From a virus, in the IMG/VR virus record IMGVR_UViG_3300002026_002465, positions 1 through 64,000 of that record: a DNA stretch of 64,000 nt. One strand, written 5' to 3'. The notes under the pieces were generated by a model. The model saw nothing but the letters and a program-made list of their open reading frames with translations, had not been told where the DNA came from and did no database searches. Both the position numbers and the translations under genes were made by a program. Below, in pieces: positions 18,204-33,147 of this stretch. Positions within the stretch are counted from its first letter, which is position 1. Each line of letters starts with the position of its first letter.

Positions 18204-18237
18204 AAGGCATTCGGCTTCGGCTGGATGCCTTTTTTTA
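18204..18237 (+). terminator. Intrinsic terminator
   Basis: AAGGCATTCGGC-TTCG-GCTGGATGCCTT then T-tract. Confidence 0.75.
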
Positions 18238-18261: not shown

Positions 18262-18289
18262 TTTAGAGAGATTAATTGTATGGTATAAT
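18262..18289 (+). promoter_or_regulatory. Class 1 promoter heading the tRNA array
   Basis: TTTAGA-N16-TATAAT. Confidence 0.75.
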
Positions 18290-18370: not shown

Positions 18371-18442
18371 GCCATCATGGTATAATGGTTATTACAACTG
18401 CTTGGTATGTAGTTAATTCAGGTTCGATTCCTGATGATGGCT
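18371..18442 (+). tRNA. trnT: tRNA-Thr(GGT)
   Basis: GCCATCA/TGATGGC acceptor; loop TTGGTAT. Confidence 0.9.
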
Positions 18443-18448
18443 TGAAAT

Positions 18449-18521
18449 GCTCTTATCTTCTAATGGATTAAGAATCGTGTCTTCTAAACACAGAATCTAG
18501 GTTCGATTCCTAGTAGGAGCT
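18449..18521 (+). tRNA. trnR: tRNA-Arg(TCT)
   Basis: GCTCTTA/TAGGAGC; loop CTTCTAA. Confidence 0.88.
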
Positions 18522-18525
18522 TTTT

Positions 18526-18598
18526 GCCTGTATGGTGTAATGAATTAGCACCGAAATCTTCGAAATTTCTGGCATAGGTTTGATTCCTATTACAGGCA
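18526..18598 (+). tRNA. trnR: tRNA-Arg(TCG)
   Basis: GCCTGTA/TACAGGC; GAAAT-CTTCGAA-ATTTC. Confidence 0.88.
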
Positions 18599-18605
18599 TA
18601 AACAT

Positions 18606-18677
18606 GGTCCCTTCGAATAACGGTTAGTTCAAAATTCTTTCAAGATTTAGACACGGGTTCGACTCCCGTAGGGACTA
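18606..18677 (+). tRNA. trnE: tRNA-Glu(TTC)
   Basis: GGTCCCT/AGGGACT; loop CTTTCAA. Confidence 0.9.
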
Positions 18678-18681
18678 TCAT

Positions 18682-18754
18682 GCAAAATTAACTCAGTTGG
18701 TAGAGTCCGAGTTTTCCAAACTCGTGGTCAGGGGTTCGAACCCCCTATTTTGCT
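18682..18754 (+). tRNA. trnG: tRNA-Gly(TCC)
   Basis: CGAGT-TTTCCAA-ACTCG. Confidence 0.9.
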
Positions 18755-18759
18755 TTCAT

Positions 18760-18832
18760 CTAGGTGTAGGGCAGTTGGCAGCCTGTTTGCTCTGGAAGCA
18801 AAAAGTCGCTGGTTCAAATCCAGTCACCTAGA
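18760..18832 (+). tRNA. trnP: tRNA-Pro(TGG)
   Basis: TTTGC-TCTGGAA-GCAAA; CTAGGTG/CACCTAG. Confidence 0.9.
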
Positions 18833-18840
18833 CTATTTTT

Positions 18841-18912
18841 GGTCCTATAGATCATCGGTTAGATCGGTGGGTTTTCAACCCACAAAGTTCAGTTCAACTC
18901 TGAGTAGGACTA
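18841..18912 (+). tRNA. trnE: tRNA-Glu(TTC)
   Basis: GTGGG-TTTTCAA-CCCAC. Confidence 0.9.
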
Positions 18913-18918
18913 TATCAA

Positions 18919-19042
18919 GGGCGTGAAAAGGTTTCGACTGAATTGTTAATTCACTTCGACGTAAATGCACTAGACTCGAAAGAAGTGGTACCTTAAAAGG
19001 TTGTAATGGTTCAGGACCCCGGATCATTCCCGGGCACGTCCA
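18919..19042 (+). ncRNA. ssrA: Minimal tmRNA (124 nt)
   Basis: GGGCGTG/CACGTCC acceptor with G3.U70; 5' GGTTTCGAC and 3' GGAC-CCCGG...CCGGG tmRNA-type ends; TAAAT|GCA resume context, tag ALDSKEVVP-stop at 18967-18996. Confidence 0.75.
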
Positions 19043-19048
19043 GATTTT

Positions 19049-19130
19049 GCAAGTGTGGTGGAATGGTATACACGTTAGTTCGAGAAGCTAATGCCCAGAG
19101 GGATTGAGAGTTCGAGTCTCTTCACTTGCA
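19049..19130 (+). tRNA. trnL: tRNA-Leu(GAG), long variable arm
   Basis: TTAGT-TCGAGAA-GCTAA. Confidence 0.88.
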
Positions 19131-19134
19131 ACAT

Positions 19135-19206
19135 GTTCCCTTCGAATAATGGTTAGTTCAAGACCCTCTCAAGGTTTAGATACGGGTTCAACTCCCGTAG
19201 GGAATA
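19135..19206 (+). tRNA. trnE: tRNA-Glu(CTC)
   Basis: AGACC-CTCTCAA-GGTTT. Confidence 0.88.
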
Positions 19207-19212
19207 ATACAT

Positions 19213-19285
19213 GGCTCCTTACTCCAACGGAAGAGAGGACCGGCTTAGAACCGGTATGTTGAGGGTTCAAATCCCTTGGGAGCTA
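19213..19285 (+). tRNA. trnL: tRNA-Leu(TAG), short variable loop
   Basis: ACCGG-CTTAGAA-CCGGT; 5-nt variable loop. Confidence 0.85.
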
Positions 19286-19293
19286 TATTTCTT

Positions 19294-19368
19294 GGTCACG
19301 TAGCCCAACTGGAAGGAGGCAACTGGTTTAAGCTCAGTACAGTAAGAGTTCGAATCTCTTCGTGACTA
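19294..19368 (+). tRNA. trnL: tRNA-Leu(TAA), short variable loop
   Basis: ACTGG-TTTAAGC-TCAGT; 5-nt variable loop. Confidence 0.85.
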
Positions 19369-19372
19369 TATC

Positions 19373-19445
19373 GGTTCTGTAGCCCAACGGAAGAGGCAGC
19401 AAGCTCAAACCTTGTAAGGTGTCGGTTCGAATCCGACCAGAACCA
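19373..19445 (+). tRNA. trnL: tRNA-Leu(CAA), short variable loop
   Basis: GCAAG-CTCAAAC-CTTGT; 5-nt variable loop. Confidence 0.85.
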
Positions 19446-19571
19446 CTAAAGGCATGTAAACACCTCGAATACCTGATAACCTCCATGAAATAATGGTAAG
19501 GGTTAGGAACAATATTCTAAACGGATAATCTATTGACAGAAAAGTCAATTTCAGAATCAGTAACCTGAGTA

Positions 19572-19681
19572 GCTTTCATATCTGGTTTGAAGCTAGGCCA
19601 GCTTCTAGTAAAAGACTCAAAAAGTCTACAGTAAAGGGTTCTGCTTAACTGCAGAGAGGAGTTCGAGTCTCCTTGAGAGCT
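19572..19681 (+). ncRNA. Oversized tRNA-like RNA (110 nt, no assignable anticodon)
   Basis: GCTTTCA/TGAGAGC acceptor and GGAG-TTCGAGT-CTCC T-arm enclosing three hairpins. Confidence 0.55.
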
Positions 19682-19682
19682 A

Positions 19683-19926
19683 ACCTGATTATGCAAGCGG
19701 TCAAGCACACTTTTGTTATAGGGAGTGGGGATAAGAATTGTGAGTGGTTCTCGAAAAGCCAAATTCAGATTCTTTATGAGAAGCAATGATGAGAGATGAT
19801 AAATTAATTTGGAGTAATTGGCCAGTTTAATATCATTGAACAAAAGAGTTTATCAAATATGAAATGGTGAAACGTACGATAACACCAAAGTAATATTAAA
19901 CGGTGGTTCGAATCCATCATCGGGTC
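19683..19926 (+). ncRNA. tRNA-framed RNA with large internal insertions (244 nt)
   Basis: ACCTGAT/ATCGGGT acceptor, class-II-type D-arm, GGTGG-TTCGAAT-CCATC T-arm; CTTTTGTT/AACAAAAG stem encloses ~120 nt. Confidence 0.55.
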
Positions 19927-19931
19927 TTTTT

Positions 19932-20019
19932 GGAAGAGATAGTTAGGAGGGCGTACTAATGCTGTTTTGAAAACAGATAGTGACTGAAAGGCCATGCGGT
20001 TCGAACCCGCACTCTTCCG
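19932..20019 (+). tRNA. trnS: tRNA-Ser(TGA)
   Basis: GGAAGAG/CTCTTCC-G73; loop TTTGAAA; variable arm. Confidence 0.88.
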
Positions 20020-20026
20020 TTTTTTT

Positions 20027-20065
20027 GGGGGATTAGCTCATCTGGTAGAGCGTTAGCTTTACACA
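20027..20065 (+). pseudogene. 5'-half tRNA remnant (TAC anticodon loop, 3' half missing)
   Basis: GGGGATTAGCTCATCTGGTAGAGCG D-arm then TTAGC-TTTACAC with no pairing partner or T-arm. Confidence 0.55.
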
Positions 20066-20127
20066 CACAGGAAATTAGATAAATTGTTGAAAAAAATAGA
20101 TGATTGGGATAAAAAGTATTTAAATAA

Positions 20128-20201
20128 GGGCCTGTAGCTTATCTAGCAGAAGCACCTGATTTGCAATCAGGATATAGTCGGGGCAGCACCGATCAGGTCC
20201 A
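20128..20201 (+). tRNA. trnA: tRNA-Ala(TGC), atypical T-loop
   Basis: G3.U70; CCTGA-TTTGCAA-TCAGG; T-loop GGCAGCA. Confidence 0.88.
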
Positions 20202-20205
20202 TCAT

Positions 20206-20278
20206 GCCATTTTCGTATAAAGGCTTATTACACCACTCCTGTAAAGTGGATATCTGAGTTCGATTCTCAGAAATGGCT
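20206..20278 (+). tRNA. trnT: tRNA-Thr(TGT)
   Basis: CCACT-CCTGTAA-AGTGG. Confidence 0.88.
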
Positions 20279-20584
20279 TATCTTTTTATATTTTTCATAC
20301 AAGATAACTATATGAAAGAATATGGATTTATATCAAAAAAAGATTACAAAGGTTCATGGGATAGATTATTAGGTATAAAAAGATATGAACCTTTTCTCAG
20401 AAATGCTAATATGGTTATTGTGTTTTATACTGGAAATAATATGCATATTATGTTAGGTGGAAAAATGATAAAACTTCCCATTAATCAATGGCCTGATAAT
20501 TATTATCCTCTTGGTAGCACAATAAAAGAAATTCTTTCCAGTATATTTGATCATAATATTACAATTGTTGGTCCTATTGCTTAG
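20273..20584 (+). CDS. Hypothetical protein (likely start 20311)
   Basis: ORF inserted in tRNA array, AAGATAAC motif upstream of ATG 20311. Confidence 0.55.
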   Translation: MAYLFIFFIQDNYMKEYGFISKKDYKGSWDRLLGIKRYEPFLRNANMVIVFYTGNNMHIMLGGKMIKLPINQWPDNYYPLGSTIKEILSSIFDHNITIVGPIA

Positions 20585-20812
20585 TTTATGGCCGGGTGTC
20601 CCGAAAAGATTTGTTTATATTTTTATATGGGTTCAATACTTTTTATCGTCTTATATATAAGATATGGATTTAATAACAATATAAATCCTGAGATTATATC
20701 ACATCCTGCAAACTGTCAATTAATCTCTCAAAGAAAAAATAGTTCAAAACATATGAATTGTTCAATTACTATTGAAGAATTATAAGAAAGAATAAGTAAG
20801 TGGTAAATACAT

Positions 20813-20896
20813 ACCATGATAGCCAAGTTGGTTAAGGTCGCTGTCTGCAAAACAGATTGCTCTTCGGAGGCGTGGGTTCGAATCCCACTCATGGTT
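20813..20896 (+). tRNA. trnC: tRNA-Cys(GCA) with long variable arm
   Basis: ACCATGA/TCATGGT-U73; loop CTGCAAA; variable hairpin with TTCG loop. Confidence 0.85.
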
Positions 20897-20902
20897 TTTC
20901 TT

Positions 20903-20975
20903 GGTGGTAGTAGTTCAGAGGAAGAACGCCTGACTGTGAATCAGGAGGTCGAGATATCATAATTCTCCTATCACC
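20903..20975 (+). tRNA. trnH: tRNA-His(GTG), atypical T-loop
   Basis: G-1:C73 pair; CCTGA-CTGTGAA-TCAGG; T-loop ATCATAA. Confidence 0.85.
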
Positions 20976-20983
20976 CTTTTTTT

Positions 20984-21055
20984 GTTTTTATAGTTTAATG
21001 GAAAAAATAAATCTCTCCTAAAGATTAGATCTCAGTTCGATTCTGAGTAAAAACA
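20984..21055 (+). tRNA. trnR: tRNA-Arg(CCT)
   Basis: GTTTTTA/TAAAAAC; AATCT-CTCCTAA-AGATT. Confidence 0.8.
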
Positions 21056-21073
21056 AAGCATATGTAATTATAT

Positions 21074-21403
21074 ATGAAAAAGTATAAAGATAAATTACTA
21101 GTTATTCAAAACTTTAATATTCAAGATTTTGGTTTTAAAAAATCTAAATCAAGAAAAATCATTGCTAAAAATGAAGATATTTTTATAAACTGGATTTTAC
21201 AAACATTAAGAGCAATGGCAGAATGTCCTGATAAAAAATATAATACATGTTGTATATATATGAATAATCATAACAATAATATTTTGAATGAATATTTTAG
21301 TCCAATGTTTTGGCTTTCTTATTCACCAACAACAAATGATGAATTAAAAGATAGTGAATATGGTATCGATTTAAATGATCTATTTGAAATAGATTACCCT
21401 TAA
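21074..21403 (+). CDS. Hypothetical protein; stop codon lies inside tRNA-Gln
   Basis: 109-aa ORF after AAGCATAT motif. Confidence 0.65.
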   Translation: MKKYKDKLLVIQNFNIQDFGFKKSKSRKIIAKNEDIFINWILQTLRAMAECPDKKYNTCCIYMNNHNNNILNEYFSPMFWLSYSPTTNDELKDSEYGIDLNDLFEIDYP

Positions 21404-21466
21404 TTCGATTGGAACAGAACGCTGTCTCTGAAACAGTATAAGTGAGTTCGATTCTCACAAGGGTAT
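21395..21466 (+). tRNA. trnQ: tRNA-Gln(CTG)
   Basis: TACCCTT/AAGGGTA; GCTGT-CTCTGAA-ACAGT. Confidence 0.85.
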
Positions 21467-21482
21467 TAAAAAGGAAAAGAAA

Positions 21483-21821
21483 ATGAAAAAATTACTAATT
21501 ATTGCACTCTTGTTTTTAACTCTTCAGATGTTTTGTCAGAATTATAGTAAAGCATATCAAGCTGAATACTATAAAGAAAAGATTGACGAATTCGTTACTT
21601 TAAGTATGATCTATGATCCTGAGTCAAGAAATCTTATTATAATCTATGAAATTAAAGATAAGATGCTTGATGAAATTGAAGCCTTTATTCTTATGAGAGA
21701 TAGAATAAAATTATTTGCTAAAGATAAAGGCTTTTATCATTATGTAACATATAGTAATGATGTTATTAAACATAGAAACAACTCTGCAGAATTTACAAGG
21801 TTTATTGTTTTTTATGAATAA
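21483..21821 (+). CDS. Secreted protein / possible lipoprotein
   Basis: MKKLLIIALLFLTLQMFC signal. Confidence 0.65.
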   Translation: MKKLLIIALLFLTLQMFCQNYSKAYQAEYYKEKIDEFVTLSMIYDPESRNLIIIYEIKDKMLDEIEAFILMRDRIKLFAKDKGFYHYVTYSNDVIKHRNNSAEFTRFIVFYE

Positions 21822-22029
21822 TATGATGTATACGCAAGTTAAACTTATTAATGGTAATAGTCAAATCACATCATGGGTTGAAACAGATAAAGTTTTATTA
21901 AATAGAAAAGTGACTTTATCTGGATTAGATGGGTGGTGGGAAATAACAGAAATCTATCAAACATTAATTAAAGAAAAATTTGATAAATTAAATAAAGCAA
22001 CATTTAACTCAATCATCAAGCATATATAA
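21757..22029 (+). CDS. Hypothetical protein (true start probably further downstream)
   Basis: ORF in accessory cluster. Confidence 0.5.
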   Translation: MMLLNIETTLQNLQGLLFFMNNMMYTQVKLINGNSQITSWVETDKVLLNRKVTLSGLDGWWEITEIYQTLIKEKFDKLNKATFNSIIKHI

Positions 22030-22044
22030 TAAAGGGGTATTACA

Positions 22045-22227
22045 ATGACTGGACAAGAAATGTGGACTAAATCTTTTGAAAGACCCAGTAATTATTTTTA
22101 TTTATCTGCTCAAGAAAGATGGGATATTGATGTTAAACTTGGTCTTATAGAAGATTTTGATTATGTAGTGTCTTCTGAAGATAAGACAAGATTTAATGAG
22201 TATTTTTTACCAAATTTAGTGATGTAA
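22045..22227 (+). CDS. Hypothetical protein
   Basis: GGGG RBS, 60 aa. Confidence 0.55.
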   Translation: MTGQEMWTKSFERPSNYFYLSAQERWDIDVKLGLIEDFDYVVSSEDKTRFNEYFLPNLVM

Positions 22228-22266
22228 AAGTAGCACAAGAAATATTAGCATATTTATAAAAAACTT

Positions 22267-22348
22267 AGGTGTATGGCCCAGCGGCGACGGCGGTAGTCTC
22301 CAAAACTATTCTGTAAAAAGCACGGGGGTTCGAGTCCTCCTACACCTG
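22267..22348 (+). tRNA. trnW: tRNA-Trp(CCA) with extended variable region
   Basis: GTAGT-CTCCAAA-ACTAT; 14-nt variable region; G73. Confidence 0.85.
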
Positions 22349-22353
22349 ACCAT

Positions 22354-22426
22354 GGAGTGTTAGCTCAGCTGGAAGAGCATCAGGCCGTTAACCTGAGGGT
22401 CGGAAGTTCGAACCTTCCACACTCCG
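22354..22426 (+). tRNA. trnN: tRNA-Asn(GTT)
   Basis: TCAGG-CCGTTAA-CCTGA. Confidence 0.9.
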
Positions 22427-22441
22427 TATTTTTTTAACCCT

Positions 22442-22512
22442 GGAGACATAGCTTAGGGGTAAAGCAGGTGGCTGTTAACCACCTGACCAAAGTTCGATTC
22501 TTTGTGTCTCCG
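22442..22512 (+). tRNA. trnN: tRNA-Asn(GTT)
   Basis: GGTGG-CTGTTAA-CCACC. Confidence 0.9.
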
Positions 22513-22520
22513 TTTTTCAC

Positions 22521-22591
22521 GCCTGATTAACATAATGGTAGTGTTACTCGTTTACACCGAGTGAGTGGGAGTTCGATTCTCTCATCGGGTA
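22521..22591 (+). tRNA. trnV: tRNA-Val(TAC)
   Basis: ACTCG-TTTACAC-CGAGT. Confidence 0.88.
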
Positions 22592-22664
22592 TACCCTATG
22601 ATTTGTAGTGGCAACATTACTGGCTTTGACCCAGTTGTCCCTGGTCCGATTCCAGGTAGAGTAA
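22592..22664 (+). tRNA. trnQ: tRNA-Gln(TTG)
   Basis: ACTGG-CTTTGAC-CCAGT; one acceptor mismatch. Confidence 0.8.
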
Positions 22665-22677
22665 TAAGGGGATAAAT

Positions 22678-23007
22678 ATGTTTGGAGTGTTTTTTACTTT
22701 GGCTTGGACTTTTATAGCCTATGTTATAGTCGTTGCAGCAAGATTTTTACTTGCTATGATTTATAGCGTAAAATTTAAAAGTTATTTTCTAAATACAAGA
22801 TGGATAACAAACCCAATATGTTGGTTGCAAATTACTCCTCACTCTTTTGTGAAAAATCATAATGACTTTTTAGCAAAGGAACAAGATGAATTAGCAGAAG
22901 AAACGTTAGAGGAATTGTTATATATGAGTGAGAGTAGAAAAGAATTTTTTCCTGAATTTGATGATATTTGGGATGTGATAGAAAGCTTTAGAGATTGGAA
23001 GAAATAA
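22678..23007 (+). CDS. Membrane protein; stop codon lies inside tRNA-Ser
   Basis: N-terminal TM, GGGG RBS. Confidence 0.65.
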   Translation: MFGVFFTLAWTFIAYVIVVAARFLLAMIYSVKFKSYFLNTRWITNPICWLQITPHSFVKNHNDFLAKEQDELAEETLEELLYMSESRKEFFPEFDDIWDVIESFRDWKK

Positions 23008-23084
23008 GCCAAAGGGTTTGGTCGCTGCTTGGAAAGCAGATGGTAGATGAAACAAGCTATGGGGTTCGAATCCCCATTCTTCCG
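22997..23084 (+). tRNA. trnS: tRNA-Ser(GGA)
   Basis: GGAAGAA/TTCTTCC-G73; loop TTGGAAA; variable arm. Confidence 0.82.
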
Positions 23085-23284
23085 TTAAAACAAGGAATTT
23101 CATGTTAAATGTAGACTGGTCTAAACAAATAGCTCGAGAAGTTATCAAATCAATAAATAAAGGAAAAGAAATTGGCAGAGTGTGAAAAATGTAAAGATGA
23201 AGGTTGGGTTTTAATAAAACAAGTTCAAGATACTGTTCACCCTGGCTATGATATTTTTAAAGCTCTTTTATATGTAGAGTGTGA

Positions 23285-23506
23285 ATGCAAAAAGAGTGCT
23301 TAGATGCAAAACTTCTTCTTTTAGAAGCAGAGTGTAAAAAGTGCAAATATTATATAATATTTGAACCTTTCCTTCAAGAAGGACATTTAAGAGAAGGGAT
23401 TTGTTTGTTAAACAATGATTCATTAAAAAGTGATAAATTAGGTAATTATAGTAATGTTGAATATAGAAAAAAAGAATCATATTGTGAACATTTTGTTAAT
23501 ATATAA
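23285..23506 (+). CDS. Small Cys-rich protein
   Basis: CKKCKYY...GIC...YCEHF. Confidence 0.55.
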   Translation: MQKECLDAKLLLLEAECKKCKYYIIFEPFLQEGHLREGICLLNNDSLKSDKLGNYSNVEYRKKESYCEHFVNI

Positions 23507-23518
23507 ACAAGATATAAT

Positions 23519-24175
23519 ATGTCTAAAAAATATATTTTATTGTATGTAATATACATATCTATCGTTACATTTATTACCTATACTTTTATTTATAGTGAAA
23601 AAATAAATCATATAAAGCAAAATTATAGAAATCAACTTTTTCAAATAGTTGAAGTGTCGTCATTAATAATTAATCCTGATGATTTACAAGTTCTTGTATA
23701 TGGTGAAAATATAGAATATAGTTATAATGAAATTAATTCTAAATTAAGTAGAATTAAATCTATATATTCTGATATGATTACCTATCTCTATATTTACATT
23801 CCTTTTGAAAAAGGGATTGTAAAGTTTATAAATGATGCTGATGAAGATGTTGCTTTTTATGGTGATGAATATGATGCATCATTATTTCCAGTAATGCTTC
23901 AGGCTTTAGATACCAATACTTCTTTAGTAGAACATAATATAGTATATGATAAAGAATTTGATATTTGGGTTTTAAGTGCTTTTGCTCCTCTTTACAATAA
24001 AGATGGAAAACAAATAGCAACTCTTGGTTTAGATTCAAGTGCTAATAATTATTTTACGGTTGCTCAACAAGAAATAATAATAATTTTTTCATTTTCACTT
24101 GTTATAGTGTTGTTAAGTCTTGCTTTGCCATTGTCAATTATTTATTTATATAAAAAGATTAAAATGCAGATGTAG
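23519..24175 (+). CDS. Orphan periplasmic sensor (Cache-like) with two TMs and no cytoplasmic output domain
   Basis: TM-domain-TM; ITYLYIY, FINDAD, WVLSAFAPLYNKDGKQIATLGLD; ends ~8 aa after second TM. Confidence 0.7.
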   Translation: MSKKYILLYVIYISIVTFITYTFIYSEKINHIKQNYRNQLFQIVEVSSLIINPDDLQVLVYGENIEYSYNEINSKLSRIKSIYSDMITYLYIYIPFEKGIVKFINDADEDVAFYGDEYDASLFPVMLQALDTNTSLVEHNIVYDKEFDIWVLSAFAPLYNKDGKQIATLGLDSSANNYFTVAQQEIIIIFSFSLVIVLLSLALPLSIIYLYKKIKMQM

Positions 24176-24302
24176 GAGGAACCATGTTAGGATTTTTACT
24201 TGGTTTAATTATTGGAGCTTGTTCAGTTTATTTATTTAAAAAAGAAATAGATAATTTTTTGAATAAGTTTAACAAGAAAGCATAGTTTATAGTGTTAGAT
24301 TT

Positions 24303-24589
24303 GCCACCTTAGCTCAGTTGGTCAGAGCACGTGATTTGTAAGTAAGATTGCACACCATATTAGTAATAATATGTGTGAATGTTCCCTAATTCGGTGAAAG
24401 CTTTAATATGCTAATACCGAGCCAAGCAGGATAAGAAATTATCTGGGCGTGTGTAGAGACTATACAGGAACCATCCCACCATTAAGTTGAGGATGAAGAT
24501 AAAGTCCAGACCACAAACTTCGAAAGAAGGTGATGAAAATCATAGTGGTAAGAATCTCGGGGTCCACGGTTCGAATCCGTGAGGTGGCT
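24303..24589 (+). tRNA. trnT: tRNA-Thr(TGT) interrupted by a group I intron
   Basis: 5' exon 24303-24339 ending TTTGT, 3' exon 24553-24589 starting AATCTCG; GCCACCT/AGGTGGC acceptor. Confidence 0.85.
24340..24552 (+). mobile_element. Group I intron (213 nt, no ORF)
   Basis: Follows U, ends in G; R-like GAGACTATA and S-like GAAGATAAAGTCC P7 elements. Confidence 0.85.
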
Positions 24590-24598
24590 ATTGTTTTT

Positions 24599-24674
24599 CG
24601 GAATGTAGGCTAGTGGCGATGCCACCTGGTTTGGGACCAGGTATTCACCGTGGGTTCGAGTCCCACCATTCCGA
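24599..24674 (+). tRNA. trnP: tRNA-Pro(GGG)
   Basis: CCTGG-TTTGGGA-CCAGG. Confidence 0.9.
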
Positions 24675-24677
24675 TAT

Positions 24678-24863
24678 ATGGTTTTTATTATTATTTTTAT
24701 GCTCATATTTTTAATTTGCCCTCTTGTTGGAAAAGTTATTTTTAAAATAATGAAAAAAGAAAAAGATTACAGCTCAGAATTAACTATAGGTTTTATTTTT
24801 ATTTATGGTATGATTGCTATTTATTATCTAATAAAAAGCATAATTTTATATGTTCAGCAATAA
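24678..24863 (+). CDS. Small two-TM membrane protein
   Basis: Two hydrophobic segments. Confidence 0.5.
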   Translation: MVFIIIFMLIFLICPLVGKVIFKIMKKEKDYSSELTIGFIFIYGMIAIYYLIKSIILYVQQ

Positions 24864-24868
24864 TTCAC

Positions 24869-24939
24869 TCCTGGATAGTGTAGTGGTAGCACAACTGACT
24901 TTGACTCAGTTAGCAGAGGTCCGAATCCTCTTTCAGGAA
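24869..24939 (+). tRNA. trnQ: tRNA-Gln(TTG)
   Basis: ACTGA-CTTTGAC-TCAGT. Confidence 0.88.
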
Positions 24940-24961
24940 AATTTCTATAATAGAGGGATAA

Positions 24962-25144
24962 ATGCGAATCATTAGAGATGCTTCTCAAGAAATTGAAAAG
25001 AAATTGATTTGTAAAAACTGTGGTGTTGAACTTGGATATTTACCACTAGATGTTCATGAAAGAACGAATCATGATTATGGTGGTGGGGTGTATACAGTAA
25101 AATATATTACTTGTCTTAATTGTGGAAAAAAAAATGATTTGTAA
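24962..25144 (+). CDS. Small zinc-ribbon protein
   Basis: CKNCG...CLNCG. Confidence 0.65.
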   Translation: MRIIRDASQEIEKKLICKNCGVELGYLPLDVHERTNHDYGGGVYTVKYITCLNCGKKNDL

Positions 25145-25146
25145 TT

Positions 25147-25229
25147 GGAAGCTTGTGATAATGGTAGTCGCCCGGCTTTGAATACCGGTGATCCGAAAGG
25201 ATTTGAGAGTTCGAGTCTCTCAGCTTCCG
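25147..25229 (+). tRNA. trnS: tRNA-Ser(TGA)
   Basis: GGAAGCT/AGCTTCC-G73; loop TTTGAAT; variable arm with GAAA loop. Confidence 0.8.
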
Positions 25230-25247
25230 TAAGTAAAAGGAAAAAAG

Positions 25248-25661
25248 ATGAAGAAAATTGTAATCGCTATGGTTTTAATTTTTAGTGTTTTGATTAATGG
25301 ATTTGCACAAAAGACTATTGACCAAATGGATGGGTATGATTGGGTTACTATGAGTGATGCTCAACATACATATATGATTCAAGGTTATTTTCTTTCATGT
25401 GTTACAGTATTAAATATGATGTTTGAAAAGGCTCAAGCCACAATGCCAGAATCTCAACTTGGGGATTTCATGCTTAATCTTGAAAGACAGTTTCTTTATG
25501 ATGAGACGGTTGGTCAAATGGCAGAAATGCTAGATGATTATTATTCTTCTCCAAGTCTAAGACAATTTACATTATACAGAGCTATCCCATTCCTTGCAGG
25601 TAAAGAATGGTGGAATCGTAAAACAGGTAAAGTTGAATCTAGTTTAAAGAATGGTATTTAA
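25248..25661 (+). CDS. Secreted protein
   Basis: MKKIVIAMVLIFSVLINGFA signal peptide. Confidence 0.7.
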   Translation: MKKIVIAMVLIFSVLINGFAQKTIDQMDGYDWVTMSDAQHTYMIQGYFLSCVTVLNMMFEKAQATMPESQLGDFMLNLERQFLYDETVGQMAEMLDDYYSSPSLRQFTLYRAIPFLAGKEWWNRKTGKVESSLKNGI

Positions 25662-25691
25662 ACTTTTATAAAAATCCAGTAAAGATATAAT

Positions 25692-25991
25692 ATGAAAAGT
25701 ATTATTATTACTGGAAATAAAAAATCTCCTTCAAAAGAATTTTTTGTTGGTGAATATTATGAAATAGACATTGTTGTTGATTATTATAATAGAGAAAGTC
25801 ATTTAGTCAAATGTGTTGAAATAGAAGATAAAATTGTATTTCAAGATTTATTTACACAAAAATTATATCGTTCTCCTATCTCCCAATTTGATATTAAAAC
25901 AAAACATGCAACTAGTTTTTCAGACATGAATGATTCAAGAAGATATAATACAATTGATTGTGTTTTCAATGAGTATTTTACAAGGAGTTAA
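25692..25991 (+). CDS. Hypothetical protein
   Basis: 99-aa ORF. Confidence 0.55.
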   Translation: MKSIIITGNKKSPSKEFFVGEYYEIDIVVDYYNRESHLVKCVEIEDKIVFQDLFTQKLYRSPISQFDIKTKHATSFSDMNDSRRYNTIDCVFNEYFTRS

Positions 25992-25992
25992 T

Positions 25993-26157
25993 ATGTTGGT
26001 TAAAATTGAACATGATGAAAATGGTGAAGCATGCTTTACAATACCAGAAGAAATTATTAAAAAGTTTGATCTCCACCCTGGAGATGAAGTTCACTTTGTA
26101 GAAAGAGATGATGGTTCACTTGAAATGACATTTCCAAAAAATGCTCCTATAGTTTAA
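25993..26157 (+). CDS. AbrB/MazE/SpoVT-like DNA-binding protein; stop lies inside tRNA-Thr
   Basis: FTIPEEIIKKFDLHPGDEVHF pattern; AGGAG RBS. Confidence 0.7.
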   Translation: MLVKIEHDENGEACFTIPEEIIKKFDLHPGDEVHFVERDDGSLEMTFPKNAPIV

Positions 26158-26214
26158 CTGGTAAAACAACTGTCTCGTAAATAGTAAAAATCTGTTCAAT
26201 TCAGATTAGGAGCT
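26143..26214 (+). tRNA. trnT: tRNA-Thr(CGT)
   Basis: GCTCCTA/TAGGAGC; ACTGT-CTCGTAA-ATAGT. Confidence 0.85.
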
Positions 26215-26370
26215 GTGTGTTTGATAAATTGATAAAGAAATTTGATCTTTTTTTATGTGCTATTGGTATGCATGAACCATCAGAATTTAAAAATGAAGTA
26301 GAAAGTGGAAAGTGTCCTGTTTGTGGTAAAAAATTGGTAAAAGATTCACAAGGAAATTGGAGAGATTAAT

Positions 26371-26443
26371 GCGGTATTAACTCAGTTGGTAGAGTGTATC
26401 CTTGCCATGGATATTGTCAGGAGTTCGAATCTCCTATACCGCT
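26371..26443 (+). tRNA. trnG: tRNA-Gly(GCC)
   Basis: TATCC-TTGCCAT-GGATA. Confidence 0.9.
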
Positions 26444-26447
26444 TTAG

Positions 26448-26517
26448 GATGTGGTTGTTATAGTGCCTCTGACAAGGTTTATAACATGGCATCGTTTTAA
26501 ACAAGTTATTTGTCAGG
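26448..26517 (+). ncRNA. Candidate H-type pseudoknot RNA
   Basis: TGTTATA/TATAACA stem; loop CTGACAA pairs with downstream TTGTCAG. Confidence 0.35.
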
Positions 26518-26535
26518 ATAGATTGTTTAGAAAAG

Positions 26536-26585
26536 TCTTATAGTTTAATGGTAAATACACAGATGATTTTGGTTCAAATAAGATC
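26536..26585 (+). pseudogene. Degenerate tRNA remnant
   Basis: TAGTTTAATGGTAAA D-arm and GGTTCAAAT T-loop, anticodon arm missing. Confidence 0.4.
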
Positions 26586-26586
26586 A

Positions 26587-26615
26587 TTTAGAGAAGATTA
26601 TGAGTGTGGTATAAT
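26587..26615 (+). promoter_or_regulatory. Class 1 promoter TTTAGA-N17-TATAAT
   Basis: Upstream of tRNA-Leu(TAA). Confidence 0.7.
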
Positions 26616-26658
26616 AATTGTATAAAGGAAAAGCATATATAAATGTGTTAGATAACTT

Positions 26659-26740
26659 GTCAGGGTGCTGGAATTGGAATACAGGGTGGACTTAAAATCC
26701 ACTGCCTTAGGGATTGGGAGTTCAAGTCTCCTTCCTGACA
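26659..26740 (+). tRNA. trnL: tRNA-Leu(TAA), long variable arm
   Basis: GTGGA-CTTAAAA-TCCAC. Confidence 0.9.
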
Positions 26741-26933
26741 TATATGAAACATAAGAAAATTATTGTAGATTTTTGGTTTGAAAATTATTTTGATCCTGAT
26801 GTGGCAATTGGTACTCTTTGTGGAAATACTGGCATTATAGATACTATTGATAGTGCTATATCTCCAAAAGGAATAAAAGCAGGAAGAAAAAATTTTTGTA
26901 TATGTCCTAATGGAAGAGCAATGAAAGAGAAAT

Positions 26934-26961
26934 TTTAGAGTCTTGTATCTTATGGTATAAT
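26934..26961 (+). promoter_or_regulatory. Class 1 promoter TTTAGA-N16-TATAAT
   Basis: Upstream of 26971 ORF. Confidence 0.75.
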
Positions 26962-26970
26962 GGAAGTAAC

Positions 26971-27378
26971 ATGGAATTTGATAAAACTTTTACAGATGAA
27001 TTAAAAGAAGAAAGACTTAGAATAGTTAAAATTAAGACTGGATTTAAAAACGTTGTTAATGTTAATTATGTTGATAGTCATAAACAAATCACTCCATTTG
27101 GAACGAGATGGGGGAGAGGAGTTGTAGTTAAAGACAATAGTGGATATGATACTATTATTGGTTCTTTTTCTTCGTCTCACTCTGATTTGAAAAAGTCTAT
27201 GCAACCAGGTGAAACTACTGCAGGAACATTTTATTTTGGATATGATAGTTTGACAAAGACAATGTATTTAGAGTATGGTTCTGATAGAACATTTGATTTT
27301 AATGATAGAAAGATTATTGATGCCATTATGGATGGATTAAAAAATAGCAATACAGTATTTAAGAACTTTATCATTTAG
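26971..27378 (+). CDS. Hypothetical protein
   Basis: 135-aa ORF with own promoter. Confidence 0.65.
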   Translation: MEFDKTFTDELKEERLRIVKIKTGFKNVVNVNYVDSHKQITPFGTRWGRGVVVKDNSGYDTIIGSFSSSHSDLKKSMQPGETTAGTFYFGYDSLTKTMYLEYGSDRTFDFNDRKIIDAIMDGLKNSNTVFKNFII

Positions 27379-27402
27379 AGTCTGGTGTAAGTGTGGTATA
27401 AT
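27374..27402 (+). promoter_or_regulatory. Class 1 promoter TTTAGA-N17-TATAAT
   Basis: Upstream of tRNA-Arg. Confidence 0.7.
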
Positions 27403-27416
27403 TAAATAAAGAATAT

Positions 27417-27489
27417 GGTCGATTAGCTTAGAGGATAAAGCCTTGGATTTCTAATCCAATCATCGGGGGTTCGAGTCCCTCATCGATCA
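27417..27489 (+). tRNA. trnR: tRNA-Arg(TCT)
   Basis: TTGGA-TTTCTAA-TCCAA. Confidence 0.9.
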
Positions 27490-27533
27490 AAAAGAATCTA
27501 GTATTAGATTCTAATAGTTTACTAGGAGTAAAT

Positions 27534-27839
27534 ATGAAGATTGTATCGTCAAAGAATGGAAATGTGGTGTTTGAACATGTTGGTCGTAATGGAGAGGCCA
27601 AGAGTCTTTCTGTAAGGGTAGACAACGAAAGTCTCAAGTTTATCAAGAGTAATGCAAGCAGCATTCGCTATGATAGCACAAATGATGCTATCAGGTATGT
27701 AGGTAATGGGGTTCATACCTCACTTGCCAGGGCAATTTGCATGAACATCAACCCTGATCTTGATGCTGGCAAGAATATCCAGTTTGCTGATGGCAACAAG
27801 TTCAACCTCAAAACCAGCAACTTCGAAATCTCTGAATAA
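27534..27839 (+). CDS. Degenerate HNH-fold protein
   Basis: SLARAI...IQFADGNKFNLKTSNF matches the LHR.I...VDHIDGNK.NN..SNL HNH pattern but lacks catalytic His residues. Confidence 0.45.
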   Translation: MKIVSSKNGNVVFEHVGRNGEAKSLSVRVDNESLKFIKSNASSIRYDSTNDAIRYVGNGVHTSLARAICMNINPDLDAGKNIQFADGNKFNLKTSNFEISE

Positions 27840-27844
27840 TAATT

Positions 27845-27865
27845 TGGGGCTTCGGCCCCATATTT
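27845..27865 (+). terminator. Intrinsic terminator
   Basis: TGGGGC-TTCG-GCCCCA then TATTT. Confidence 0.6.
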
Positions 27866-27877
27866 GGGCCATTATTT

Positions 27878-27950
27878 GGGCCATTGGCGCAATGGTTAAC
27901 GCGGAGCGCTCATAACGCTAGGATTCGAGGTTCAAATCCTCGATGGCCCA
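27878..27950 (+). tRNA. tRNA(CAT), Met or Ile2-type
   Basis: GGGCCAT/ATGGCCC-A; loop CTCATAA; preceded by 12-nt tandem duplication TATTTGGGCCAT. Confidence 0.85.
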
Positions 27951-27963
27951 AGAAGGTAAAAAA

Positions 27964-28173
27964 ATGATTTATAAATTGACTGAATTAGGTAAAAAGAACG
28001 AAAAAGATATTATAAAAATAATTTCAACTAGTGGTCCTAGAAACTATTTAGTTGGAAATGATGATATAGAATTCAAGAATGGTTATGTTGAATTTGAAAT
28101 AATTCCACCTGCAGTTGATATTGTTGGAAGAATAAAAGAAAATTTGCTTGAAAAGGCATATATAGATGAGTGA
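27964..28173 (+). CDS. Hypothetical protein
   Basis: Downstream ATG of ORF 27943-28173 with AAGG RBS. Confidence 0.55.
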   Translation: MIYKLTELGKKNEKDIIKIISTSGPRNYLVGNDDIEFKNGYVEFEIIPPAVDIVGRIKENLLEKAYIDE

Positions 28174-28279
28174 AAGTTTTACAAAAATTCCTTGGTAAAA
28201 CTTAGACATGCATGAAAGTGTATAGTCAGGTGAAGCACTTTTAAAGAGTTTTCGGTGTATTAAAAACTCTTTTTCTTTT

Positions 28280-28351
28280 GCAACATTAGCTCAGAGGCAG
28301 AGCGGGGGATTTCCAATCCTCAGGTCAGGATTTCAAAATTCCTATGTTGCT
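28280..28351 (+). tRNA. trnG: tRNA-Gly(TCC)
   Basis: GCAACAT/ATGTTGC-U73; loop TTTCCAA; imperfect T-stem. Confidence 0.8.
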
Positions 28352-28428
28352 ATTCTGAAATTATTATAAATCAATCTTATTTTTAAGTTCGATTTACACT
28401 ATGCGCTTAATTTATCTAAGATAATTAT

Positions 28429-29268
28429 ATGGATAAAACATATATATGTAAAATTTGTGGAAAACAATTTAAAAATGGTCAAGCTTTTGGAGGTCATGTT
28501 GTTGTTCATTCTGAACAATGGATATCCTCAATGAATAAAGTTGCAAAGAAAAAAGTTTTACAAAGAAATATTATAGTTAAATCATGTGAAAAATGTGGAA
28601 CTAAATTTGAAGTAGAAAGAATAGTATCAAAAAATGGAATAGAGAATATTTCAAACAAAGAAAAGAGATTTTGCTCTAGAATATGTGCAAATGGTCATAA
28701 AGTTTCAGAAGAAACAAAAAAGAAAATATCAAATGGAAGTATGGGAAACACTTCTTGGAATAAAGGTTTTAATAAAGGCTTAGGCTTTAATAAAGGTTCA
28801 AGAATAAGTTGTATATCATGTGGAAAAGAAATTATAAAAAACATTTCACAAATGTGTTTTATTTGTTATAAAAAGAGTGGCCTACATTCATTAAAAATGA
28901 AAGGAAAAACAGGTGGCCTAAGACATGGCGGTGGGCATGGTAAAAACGGTTGGTATAAAGGTTATTGGTGCGATTCTTCTTGGGAACTTGCTTTTGTTAT
29001 TTATAATTTAGAAAATAATATTTCTTTTATAAGAAACAAAGAAGGTTTTGAATATACTTTTGAAGGAAAAACATATAAATACTATCCGGATTTTATTTTA
29101 GAAGATGGTTCATACGTAGAAATTAAAGGATATAAAACTAATCAAGTTCAAGCTAAAATTGATCAGTTTAAATATAAATTACAAATTTTAGAAAAGAAAG
29201 ATATGCAAGCATATATTAATTATGTAAAAGAAAAATATGGCGAAAACTATATTAAATTGTATGAATAA
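28429..29268 (+). CDS. Free-standing homing endonuclease-like protein (zinc fingers, NUMOD-like repeat, C-terminal PD-(D/E)XK nuclease)
   Basis: C2H2 finger CKICGKQF...H..VH, CSRICA, ETKKKIS, DSSWE...YYPDF...YVEIKGY. Confidence 0.8.
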   Translation: MDKTYICKICGKQFKNGQAFGGHVVVHSEQWISSMNKVAKKKVLQRNIIVKSCEKCGTKFEVERIVSKNGIENISNKEKRFCSRICANGHKVSEETKKKISNGSMGNTSWNKGFNKGLGFNKGSRISCISCGKEIIKNISQMCFICYKKSGLHSLKMKGKTGGLRHGGGHGKNGWYKGYWCDSSWELAFVIYNLENNISFIRNKEGFEYTFEGKTYKYYPDFILEDGSYVEIKGYKTNQVQAKIDQFKYKLQILEKKDMQAYINYVKEKYGENYIKLYE

Positions 29269-29278
29269 AGTTGGATAA

Positions 29279-29303
29279 GTGGGTTCGACTCCCATCTGGC
29301 GCT
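29279..29303 (+). pseudogene. 3'-half tRNA remnant (T-arm plus acceptor strand)
   Basis: GTGGG-TTCGACT-CCCAT-CTGGCGC-T with no matching 5' half. Confidence 0.55.
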
Positions 29304-29318
29304 AATTTTTAATAGGAG

Positions 29319-29678
29319 ATGAAGGTGATTGATAAAGATCTTTTCAAAAAAGAACACATCAATGTAAAAATTGGAAATCGTTTTGGAGATTATGATCAGG
29401 TTATTGATGAGTTTTTTTTCAAAAAGGTTAAAAAGTTGAAGGGTGAGATTTCATCTTCTGATGGAAGTGAGTATAAGCTTATTTCTAATAATGGGGATAA
29501 GTTTGTAATAGATTTTATATTGGCTGAAAGAGAGTTTGAATGTTTGAATGAAAAGATTGCTTCATTTGAAAGTGTAACGATTAGGTGTTATGGAAAGGTT
29601 AAGGAGTTAGATGGAGAGGATTATTTATCCATTGATGATATTGATGTAATTAATGAAACAAATTACGATTTGGAGTAA
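29319..29678 (+). CDS. Hypothetical protein
   Basis: AGGAG RBS, 119 aa. Confidence 0.65.
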   Translation: MKVIDKDLFKKEHINVKIGNRFGDYDQVIDEFFFKKVKKLKGEISSSDGSEYKLISNNGDKFVIDFILAEREFECLNEKIASFESVTIRCYGKVKELDGEDYLSIDDIDVINETNYDLE

Positions 29679-29729
29679 ATAATAAGCATATTTATTAGTA
29701 TATAAAACAGTTATTTAAAAAAAGAAAAT

Positions 29730-30600
29730 ATCGGGTGTTTATGCTCGTTAGAATAGTGTGTAGTGATATACATAAAGGGAAAAAGGAATGTGACTCCTCC
29801 CGCTGTAGAAATACAGTTCATGTAAACAAGCCAACTTTCCTATGATTTCACCTCCAAGTGGAATTTTTAGAGACATTAGATCATGGAAGTTTTCGAGGCC
29901 AACGGTGTAGAAAACGGTTATCGCAAGTAACACGTGATGTGCTAAACTAATTATCTATGAGAAAGAATGGTAGTTATTCGGTATGAGTCGTCGCTGACGA
30001 GTGCTGATTAGCAGTTTGATAGATTTGAGGGAAAACTTAGTCTTGAAAAACTACAAAGTAGGTTTGCCGCTGAAATGTATGCAAAGTGTTGTATTCTGTA
30101 TCTCAAAAGGATATGGAGCAACTGGTCAAGCACTTTGTGGTCACGATAATTAGCCAATTAAATTTGGCACTAGTATTTTTGGAATTAGTAATTAATGCAA
30201 AAGACTTGACCAGTAATAAGTGAAAGTGGCTTAACTCTAGACTTCGAAAGAAGAATCTAGAACACAAATGTTCGCAAGACAAATGTGTTTGATTGGAAGG
30301 TGCATGGAGGATCTTAGCGGATCTTAATTGCTCGCAAGGCAACCAGTAACTAGAATGTTGACTAGCTTGTTATGATGAGAGAAACGCCGCTCTCTAAAAA
30401 AGGCAGCCATGCTACTGAACATCCTTGAGGATGTGGATAAAAACTTAACCAAAGGTGTAGCAACCAGAGGGTACGAGTTTGAATGAAGTGGTATAGAGCA
30501 TGTAATCTCAGTGCTCTTAATTTAATTCTCCTTGAATAAGGAAGAATTTTTTATTGGTGATAATGGTTAAATGAGGTTCGATTCCTTTAATCACCATCAG
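29730..30600 (+). ncRNA. Large ornate structured RNA, GOLLD-like
   Basis: ~0.9 kb without a credible + strand ORF, GC-richer than flanks, many GNRA-capped hairpins and long-range stems; inside tRNA island; AAGCATAT motif upstream and terminator downstream; boundaries approximate. Confidence 0.65.
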
Positions 30601-30647
30601 CTAGGAATCTTTGAAATGCTTGGTTGTGCAGCCATTAAATACTTTTG

Positions 30648-30676
30648 TCTCCTATCACTGATAGGAGATTTTTTTT
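30648..30676 (+). terminator. Intrinsic terminator
   Basis: TCTCCTATC-ACT-GATAGGAGA then T-tract. Confidence 0.75.
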
Positions 30677-30697
30677 GCATACTTTACTCTAGAGGTT

Positions 30698-30910
30698 ATG
30701 ATGATAAATTATAGACTTAGTTTTAGAGGAAAAAAGACCAAGACTGCTTTGTTCAAAAATAGTTTATATAATTATATAAATAATGGGGTTACTAAGTTTT
30801 TTACTTATGATGGTGAGGTGTTAGAGTTTAGTGGTGAAAAAGAAGATTATGATAAAGTGGTGAAATTCGCAAATTATCATAATGGAGAGGTTGTTGAGGC
30901 AAAAGAATGA
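30698..30910 (+). CDS. Hypothetical protein
   Basis: GAGG RBS. Confidence 0.55.
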   Translation: MMINYRLSFRGKKTKTALFKNSLYNYINNGVTKFFTYDGEVLEFSGEKEDYDKVVKFANYHNGEVVEAKE

Positions 30911-31422
30911 TAAAATGGAAGAGGACTGGAAATAAAGAATATCCTAAAGAAGAACAAGAGTGTTTTATATATTTTTTTCATACTGGATTTGAAAAAAGTG
31001 TCTTCACAACTGAAAAAATAAAAGAGCTTGATTGTACAGTGACTTGTTTTTCAGGCTCTGGTGGATGGTTAGGAGATGAAGATGTTTTATGGATATCTAT
31101 AGAAGAATATGAAACCGGTGACATTCCAGAAATACCAATTTCATATTCTGAAGATAAATGTTTTATGAAATGGGATGACCCTAGATTAATTATTAAACAA
31201 GTAAAATTGAAAGAAGATTATTTACTTAGAATAAAAGAAATATCTTATGAAAAACAGTTTTACAAAGATCAGATTTTTGGTGTGGTGCAAGAATTAAATC
31301 TACAACAAAGCCAATTTTGGATAAAGGATTGTTTAACTCCTCTATCACAATGTATTTATTCTGAAGGACAGAATTTAGAACAAACATGGTTACCAACAGA
31401 ATTATGTGAGGTTGTTGAATAA
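30907..31422 (+). CDS. Hypothetical protein
   Basis: ATGA overlap, 171 aa. Confidence 0.65.
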   Translation: MIKWKRTGNKEYPKEEQECFIYFFHTGFEKSVFTTEKIKELDCTVTCFSGSGGWLGDEDVLWISIEEYETGDIPEIPISYSEDKCFMKWDDPRLIIKQVKLKEDYLLRIKEISYEKQFYKDQIFGVVQELNLQQSQFWIKDCLTPLSQCIYSEGQNLEQTWLPTELCEVVE

Positions 31423-31464
31423 AAGCATACAAATACCTTAATTTATTAAAGATAATTAAGGGGA

Positions 31465-31863
31465 ATGATGAAAAAAATTTTAATGATTGACGATAGTCCT
31501 TTTTTATATGCACAATTTAAAAATATTTTTTTAAAAGATTTTAACTTTGAGTATTTGCAGATTTTGGATCCTTTTAAAACACAAGAAACAATTGATGAAT
31601 ACAAACCTGATTTAATTATTTTAGATGTTAATTTTAATCTCCCTATAGATGGGTTAGAATTGGGTTTATTTATTAAAAAAAATTATGATATTCCAATAAT
31701 TTATTTTTCAGGAGTAGGTTTAGATACTGCAAAAGAAATTATTGATAAAGTTAATCCTGAATGTTTTATATTAAAGTTAAGTTATTCAGATGATCTTATT
31801 AAGATTATACTTTATAATATTATCAAAAAGGTTGAACGTGCTAAAAAAAATAATACTGATTGA
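31465..31863 (+). CDS. Stand-alone response regulator receiver domain
   Basis: ILMIDDS, PDLIILD, DGLEL, PIIYFSG, FILK. Confidence 0.88.
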   Translation: MMKKILMIDDSPFLYAQFKNIFLKDFNFEYLQILDPFKTQETIDEYKPDLIILDVNFNLPIDGLELGLFIKKNYDIPIIYFSGVGLDTAKEIIDKVNPECFILKLSYSDDLIKIILYNIIKKVERAKKNNTD

Positions 31864-32221
31864 TGGCAATATAACTACTAGAAAGACTACCAAACTTATA
31901 TTAACTTTACACGGTGGATTCGAAGTTATTGACTTTGCTAACATTGAAGATACTATTTCATATTTAAATAATAATAATAAAATAGACTTAATTGTTTCTG
32001 ATATTGAGTTTTCTGGTATTGATGTATTCCAATTTATAAAAGAAATAAAAGAAAAAGATATATATAAAAGCACACCTATACTTATTACTTCTAAAGATCA
32101 ACACTCTTTTGAGTTGCAGAATCTTTCTTTTGCAAGGCTTATTGATGGGTGGTTAATGAAACCTTTTGATGAAAAAGTATTGATGCTTTTAGTTAAAACA
32201 TATTTAGGTGGAGGTGTTTAA
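31790..32221 (+). CDS. Stand-alone response regulator receiver domain (true start ~31838)
   Basis: IDLIVSD, PILITS, GWLMKPFD; second acidic-pocket residue replaced (DG). Confidence 0.82.
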   Translation: MILLRLYFIILSKRLNVLKKIILIDGNITTRKTTKLILTLHGGFEVIDFANIEDTISYLNNNNKIDLIVSDIEFSGIDVFQFIKEIKEKDIYKSTPILITSKDQHSFELQNLSFARLIDGWLMKPFDEKVLMLLVKTYLGGGV

Positions 32222-32236
32222 GGTGTATAATATAAT

Positions 32237-32938: not shown

Positions 32939-33147
32939 GTAATTATGAGCATCAAAAAAGAAGTTATTAAGACACTTATGGAACAAGCTAGAAATGATAT
33001 TTCTTTAGGTAATATTGTTGAAATGAGTCAAAAAGAAGCTGATGATATGAATGACAAGTGTCTTAAAAAAGCTATTAAAAGACTAAAAATGCAATTGGAA
33101 AGCATATATAGATATACATAGTGCAACGCTATGTTTATCTCATCAGT

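Follow-up and report, generated by a model that had tools for sequence, protein, structure and literature searches.

Can a phage RNA of 124 nt act as a complete tmRNA, directing the addition of a peptide tag on stalled ribosomes, or does it serve the phage in another way? The question is raised by a gene at positions 18919-19042 (+) of a 64,000-nt stretch of DNA, hereafter the window, part of an uncultured large phage whose IMG/VR record is 177,948 bp long and estimated to be ~74% complete. This DNA is present in microbial-mat metagenomes; contigs of four related runs do not extend over the gene, and no RNA sequencing run was listed as containing the phage. A sequence-only reading of the locus had described a miniature, pseudoknot-free tmRNA with alanine identity elements and a tag frame, ALDSKEVVP, that host proteases may not recognise, and had proposed that it stabilises truncated phage products or competes for host SmpB.

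Position of the element within a phage tRNA array

The element, in which CCA is not encoded, lies within a run of >35 tRNA genes and a GOLLD RNA (18371-34743). It is flanked by tRNA-Glu, ending at 18913, and tRNA-Leu, starting at 19048, with a 5-nt spacer on each side. Neighbouring genes of the array are likewise separated by 1-6 nt here, and CCA is encoded in none of its tRNAs. Upstream of the array a promoter-like site, a pattern match only, was located by consensus scan at 18262-18289 (+), and a terminator-like hairpin (18204-18231) stands after thyX, just before this site. Given its placement in the array and the 5-nt spacers, the mini-tmRNA is most simply another unit of the array transcript.

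The RNA has no anticodon arm with an alanine anticodon and is called neither by ARAGORN nor by the Rfam tRNA model. A role as the alanine tRNA of the phage was considered and rejected, as a separate, ordinary tRNA-Ala(UGC) is encoded at 20128-20201. The latter, which has G3:U70 and a non-canonical T-loop, is among the tRNAs detected by Rfam and missed by ARAGORN, the others lying at 20904-20975 (anticodon GUG, His, with an odd T-loop) and 22592-22664 (all +). An amber-suppressor tRNA (anticodon CUA), labelled 'Pyl' by ARAGORN, is present at 33713-33785 (+), and the ORFs of the genome are normal under code 11. The tRNA island also contains a full-length GOLLD RNA (RF02032, 176 bits, E = 7e-48) at 30081-30514 (+).

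tmRNA signatures and overall structure

The termini of the RNA form an acceptor stem in which the 5′ strand (18919-18925) pairs at all seven positions with 19035-19041, including a wobble between G3 (18921) and U70 (19039), and the discriminator base is A73 (19042; 3′ strand and discriminator together 19035-19042). The D-loop analogue of the tRNA-like domain (TLD), GGUUUCGAC, lies at 18930-18938 and matches the tmRNA consensus, followed by the 5′ strand of H2 (18939-18948), which pairs with 19004-19013 over 10 bp, three of them G-U. Both of the expected TLD motifs are present, GGNUUCGAC and GGAC followed by a T-arm (19014-19034), with GGAC at 19014-19017 and the T-arm at 19018-19034, its stem of 5 bp formed by 19018-19022 and 19030-19034. 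The T-loop, AUCAUUC, is unusual in that A54 and U58 replace U54 and A58, U55 and C56 being kept.

The interior between the H2 strands is 55 nt long and H2 itself, at 10 bp, is far shorter than its bacterial counterpart. Within this interior, hairpin A is formed by 18952-18957 and 18982-18987 and encloses a 24-nt loop (18958-18981) that holds a restart-like context, UAA at positions -5 to -3, and GCA at 18967-18969. The context before GCA (U -5, A -4) is canonical. In E. coli the frame is set by upstream U at -5 and A at -4 followed by GCA, A86 is near-universal, and AUAA or AUAG is preferred by tmRNAs (PMC2481249, PMC4236655). The candidate tag frame (18967-18996, +) extends from GCA to UAA (18994-18996) through nine codons, ALDSKEVVP, and the stop lies in hairpin B (18990-19001), which has a 5-bp stem and a 2-nt loop and resembles H5 of tmRNA. 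All features are on the + strand. The acceptor pairing with G3:U70, tmRNA-like ends, GGAC and T-arm, 10-bp H2, frame, stop hairpin and canonical restart context were thus recovered at the same positions as in the sequence-only reading.

Neither ARAGORN nor Rfam at gathering thresholds calls a tmRNA in the window. An end-to-end alignment of 18919-19045 to the tmRNA model RF00023 is nonetheless obtained (34.5 bits, below its gathering threshold of 47 bits; E = 2e-13 for this genome), a match beyond chance. The deviant T-loop lowers the score. Both halves of the element match the tmRNA_permuted consensus nearly letter for letter, and when the 64-kb window was scanned with a descriptor, no second site of this kind was detected. 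BLASTN searches of GenBank phages with the element and with the 2 kb around it returned tRNA matches or noise only.

The 55-nt interior has no room for PK1-PK4, all of which are absent, and in the window clade no segment complementary to the 24-nt loop was found that could act as a pseudoknot partner, in agreement with the description of the RNA as pseudoknot-free. Equating this loop with the 3′ half of PK1 was rejected since the strand topology differs. The loop sequence UCGAAA could pair with UUUCGA of the TLD, and neither side varies among the copies.

Close relatives and covariation of the structure

Three close relatives of the element were identified in other contigs, L026:1520-1644 (-), L033:1845-1968 (-) and L029:266-392 (+), giving with the window a set of four. 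L026 is a 155-kb phage contig in which the mini-tmRNA again lies between two tRNAs, and L029 is a 1.2-kb low-coverage contig. A clade-specific pattern matched nothing in genome contigs and L026 only in viral contigs, and a ThyX-based search for syntenic relatives yielded one distant locus, without the element.

The energy of the single-sequence fold is not unusual (z = -1.35), and structural support therefore rests on covariation. MAFFT misaligned the variable linker throughout the class, and the specified structure was scored on a four-sequence alignment of the close relatives (A2). Paired cells amount to 93.2% of this alignment, as opposed to 41-52% when the partners are slid by 1-3 columns, and compensatory changes on both sides are observed in 21 of the 33 base pairs; none of 500 shuffles reached any of the covariation measures. 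The changes are distributed over the acceptor stem (three pairs), H2 (5/10), hairpin B (3/5), the T stem (4/5) and hairpin A, where all six pairs are compensatory, 100% of cells are paired and the strands are effectively swapped between copies. The G3:U70 wobble and the D-loop analogue are invariant and the 24-nt loop is near-invariant. H2 of the relatives contains a 2x2 internal loop, and hairpin B of L029 has a different shape.

With 21 of 33 pairs compensatory, the mini-tmRNA is a genuine, selected RNA gene which belongs to the tmRNA family in its TLD and H2. The covariation among phage copies that had been called for as a check is therefore present, and together with the end-to-end RF00023 alignment and the consensus match it bears out the claim of a miniature phage tmRNA with alanine identity elements.

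The same data bear on the possibility that the locus has no function, being either what is left of a captured tmRNA gene in decay or a fragment from an attachment site. tmRNA 3′ fragments are common at phage integration sites and many were indeed encountered among the matches of our pattern scans. In this element, however, both halves are present and paired, the spacing of the tRNA array is exactly maintained, the design is common to ~39 distinct minis, and five helices covary across four diverged copies, which rules out decay. A remnant is scarcely credible and this explanation is close to refuted.

A wider class of phage mini-tmRNAs

Related genes were sought with patterns anchored on TLD features only, in two narrow scans of IMG/VR and one metagenome scan. 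The viral-contig scans returned 67 loci in one case, where ~2.5 are expected by chance (an estimate), and 50 in the other, and were filtered with a descriptor that demanded pairing of the acceptor stem, G3:U70 and the TLD motif, together with GGAC and a T-arm. About 39 distinct phage mini-tmRNAs of 71-137 nt remained, including the window element and two metagenome copies. Most of the other matches were an upstream tRNA beside a tmRNA 3′ fragment, or permuted tmRNAs, and three of the five metagenome matches were chance matches in GC-rich coding sequence. Minis lie within phage tRNA arrays in L010, L014, L017, L026 and L076. With relaxed filters many minis exceed the RF00023 threshold, among them L029 at 67.4, L011 at 66.9, L033 at 61.7, L068 at 60.1, L076 at 59.9 and L010 at 58.1 bits, and L026 scores 45.1 bits; in the printed alignments, the score of the minis derives from the TLD and H2, the interior being skipped.

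The window clade is the most tmRNA-like among the minis, having a restart context, a nine-codon frame and a hairpin stop, and from the sequences compared it appears to be set apart from other minis by the second hairpin with its in-frame UAA. A second clade of 113-124 nt (L010, L011, L041, L068, L072, L078, L053 and L012) has a nested hairpin, the apical GCCC-like segment of which can pair with the 4 nt that immediately precede the outer stem on its 5′ side. This pairing covaries (AGGG/CCCU, CGGG/CCCG, UGCG/CGCA, AGGC/GCCU) and is a candidate pseudoknot, which would bury the 'resume' GCC. An identical 112-nt mini occurs in four contigs of about 106-140 kb (L043, L063, L083 and L087), in which a long perfect hairpin is followed by UAA and a five-codon frame, ALPVL, runs across the 3′ strand of the hairpin. 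At L106:1308-1437 (-), a 130-nt mini has a canonical AUAA-AU context, GCA, ten codons (AFKTTTGRLN) and tandem stops, UAA UGA; no other mini found makes as convincing a candidate for coding as L106.

The only published mini case that we found is the 'TLD-only' tmRNA of Mycobacterium phage DS6A (JN698994.1, 28478-28557, equivalent to L091:179-258), an RNA of 80 nt (PMC4131195, PMC11915505). Like the window RNA it is phage-encoded, without a phage SmpB, and has an acceptor stem with G3:U70, a T-arm, a short H2 and no pseudoknots, and its interior contains the same A-rich motif followed by GCAC. The DS6A RNA differs in lacking a second hairpin and a terminated frame, there being no stop, whereas the 124-nt window RNA has two covarying interior hairpins and departs from the DS6A type, defined by the absence of a terminated tag frame, in having GCA plus eight codons and UAA. 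The common design and interior motif place the DS6A RNA at the short end of the mini-tmRNA class. DS6A-like TLD-only genes of 77-80 nt recur in many small viral contigs (L095, L097, L131, L137, L138; L101, L112; L096, L127; L099, L103 and others), and came to light only where a tRNA lying upstream provided a match to the 5′ anchor of the pattern.

Is the tag frame decoded?

One interpretation of the element is that of a complete, minimal tmRNA, which would transfer alanine, resume translation on GCA (18967), encode ALDSKEVVP and terminate at UAA, rescuing the ribosome and leaving a tag that proteases do not read. The canonical restart context with GCA as the resume codon (PMC4236655) and the stop in an H5-like hairpin loop are in keeping with this, as is the conservation of the frame and stop position: nine codons from GCA to UAA are found in the window (ALDSKEVVP), L026 (AQESKTSVP) and L033 (APESKVLVD), three of the four close relatives. 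Short frames ending in UAA occur in L106 and L043 as well.

The relatives also provide evidence against decoding. In L029 every helix is preserved and the Rfam score is higher than in any other copy of the set, yet a 1-nt insertion after GCA, combined with the altered hairpin B, leaves it without an in-frame stop before the 3′ end. The homologues had been expected to conserve the resume codon and reading frame, an expectation that holds for L026 and L033 and breaks down in L029. Moreover, the pattern of variation carries no amino-acid-level signal. Codons 6-8 constitute the 3′ strand of the covarying hairpin A (18982-18987 being codons 6-7 and part of codon 8), so that what look like amino-acid changes there are covariation of the helix. 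Codons 4-5 (UCG AAA) are invariant, wobble positions included, and free variation in the frame is confined to codon 2 (second position) and codon 3 (third position). The predicted C-termini, VVP, SVP and LVD, differ. Thus, the tag frame reported earlier exists and is largely kept, whereas its decoding is not established.

In the wider class the loop motif, an A-rich run, GCN-C and a later CGAAA-like run, is recurrent, allowing stops to be counted from the GCN of the motif in 27 of the 39 minis (104-137 nt). An in-frame stop before GGAC is found in 11 of the 27, compared with 16 of 27 for each of the other frames, and all three frames are open in GC-rich members (e.g. L012, L078, L053 and L070). 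In-frame stops are therefore not enriched, indicating that these RNAs, taken together, are not under selection for translation to end within them. Conservation of the ALDSKEVVP frame can be explained by constraints at the RNA level, and the nine-codon frame is more likely not a selected feature, judging from the alignments.

Geometry provides a further objection to complete tagging. One-piece tmRNA (SsrA, RF00023) has in common with the window RNA a TLD, H2, a restart context (A at -4), GCA as the resume codon and the placement of the stop within a hairpin loop, but is 2-3 times longer, with a long H2, four pseudoknots ringing the 30S beak and a conserved degron end (e.g. LAA). In E. coli complexes the beak is encircled by a closed ring, made up of the mRNA-like domain, H5 and the pseudoknots and measuring 81x97 Å and later 96x128 Å, and the long H2 reaches out between the subunits (PMC8363625). 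The 55-nt interior, fully unfolded, has a contour of roughly 330 Å. If the E. coli structures are a guide, the short H2 would not reach outside the ribosome, and canonical threading of a 55-nt loop on a 10-bp H2 round the beak looks marginal unless H2 melts; for members of 77-110 nt it looks impossible. Set against this are engineered E. coli tmRNAs which lack PK1 or have replaced pseudoknots. As summarised in PMC4236655 from Wower et al. (2009) and related work, tagging persists when a hairpin or a single strand takes the place of PK1, indicating that pseudoknots are not strictly needed; in these RNAs, which are not natural genes, H2 is still long and the loop retains its overall length.

On balance, we consider a complete minimal tmRNA that rescues ribosomes and adds a tag not read by proteases somewhat unlikely, and the stricter proposition, that this RNA of 124 nt is the smallest one-piece tmRNA in nature to perform full trans-translation, unlikely. 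If the latter were true, GCA would be loaded into the A site, ALDSKEVVP added and translation terminated in spite of the missing pseudoknots, the 10-bp H2 and the 55-nt loop; truncated phage proteins would receive an innocuous tag in place of the host's degradation tag, and a ring round the 30S beak would not be required for template switching. The window clade is the best natural test of translation templating by a pseudoknot-free, ring-less tmRNA.

Proposed competition with host trans-translation

The interpretation that we favour, at about an even chance, is that the mini-tmRNA is an alanine-accepting, SmpB-dependent competitor of host tmRNA which spares truncated products the host degron. 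Domain searches of the phage record (~74% complete) for SmpB, RF-1/ArfB, Pth and CCA-adding enzyme were all empty, and any activity must accordingly use host factors. SmpB and full-length tmRNA are absent from this phage record and likewise from four near-complete or complete mini-bearing phages.

In the mechanism envisaged, the mini-tmRNA would be transcribed with the tRNA array and excised by tRNA-processing enzymes, its CCA end being supplied by the host. Host AlaRS could then charge it with alanine through G3:U70 and A73, and host SmpB could bind it, and the resulting Ala-TLD/SmpB complex would rival full-length host tmRNA for SmpB and stalled ribosomes. The net effect would be the escape of truncated products from the host degron tag; many of those spared may be the phage's own, arising from a transcript full of tRNA-processing sites. 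We infer alanine charging, SmpB binding, competition with host tmRNA and benefit to the phage. The conserved restart-like loop probably serves engagement of SmpB or the ribosome, not a tag.

Of the two outcomes raised by the sequence-only reading, 'competing for host SmpB' fits the evidence better than tagging, and it fits the reports on DS6A-type RNA, which is said to inhibit E. coli tmRNA strongly, perhaps through titration of SmpB (PMC4131195, PMC11915505). Reduced forms are also known from organelles: the CDS-less tmRNAs of jakobid and oomycete mitochondria and the ~65-bp plastid forms keep the TLD, with SmpB encoded elsewhere, and differ in being organellar and often permuted, with no such restart-like loop described (PMC11915505). 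Several observations count against a competitor. Exactly nine codons plus UAA, with the stop in an H5-like hairpin loop, are retained in three of four close relatives, and a conserved restart signal is odd in a pure decoy. In addition, engineered E. coli tmRNA can tag without its pseudoknots, and L106 has a terminated frame. The sample behind the competitor reading consists of four close relatives only, one of which is the low-coverage L029.

A further alternative is a tRNA-like RNA with a different task, which might be to donate alanine outside the ribosome, to bind a phage protein through the conserved 24-nt loop, or to contribute to the processing or structure of the array transcript. In its favour, no other part of the interior is as conserved as this loop, which SmpB-TLD binding does not require. 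We regard such a task as quite improbable, in that the conserved TLD features are all those which AlaRS, EF-Tu and SmpB use on real tmRNA, an ordinary tRNA-Ala(UGC) is already available to the phage, and no candidate partner gene was identified.

If minis block or redirect host trans-translation, they are a widespread, unannotated phage tool against a host quality-control pathway and natural minimal substrates for defining what SmpB and the ribosome require of tmRNA.

Mini-tmRNAs in surveys of phage genomes

The kind of gene described here is known, both as tmRNA and as the DS6A TLD-only phage form, and no paper was found on phage forms of 100-137 nt; among CDS-less phage forms, the 2025 tmRNA database paper mentions DS6A only (PMC11915505). 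ARAGORN, the usual counter of phage tmRNAs, misses all of the minis found, and surveys based on it (PMC7162821, PMC9004378) would miss them. Full-length permuted, two-piece tmRNA genes were also encountered in viral contigs, at L021:610-962 and L024:10599-10949, with the tags ANDERFALAA and ANDEQFALAA, respectively, and a sigma-70-like promoter overlaps the GGUUUCGAC motif.
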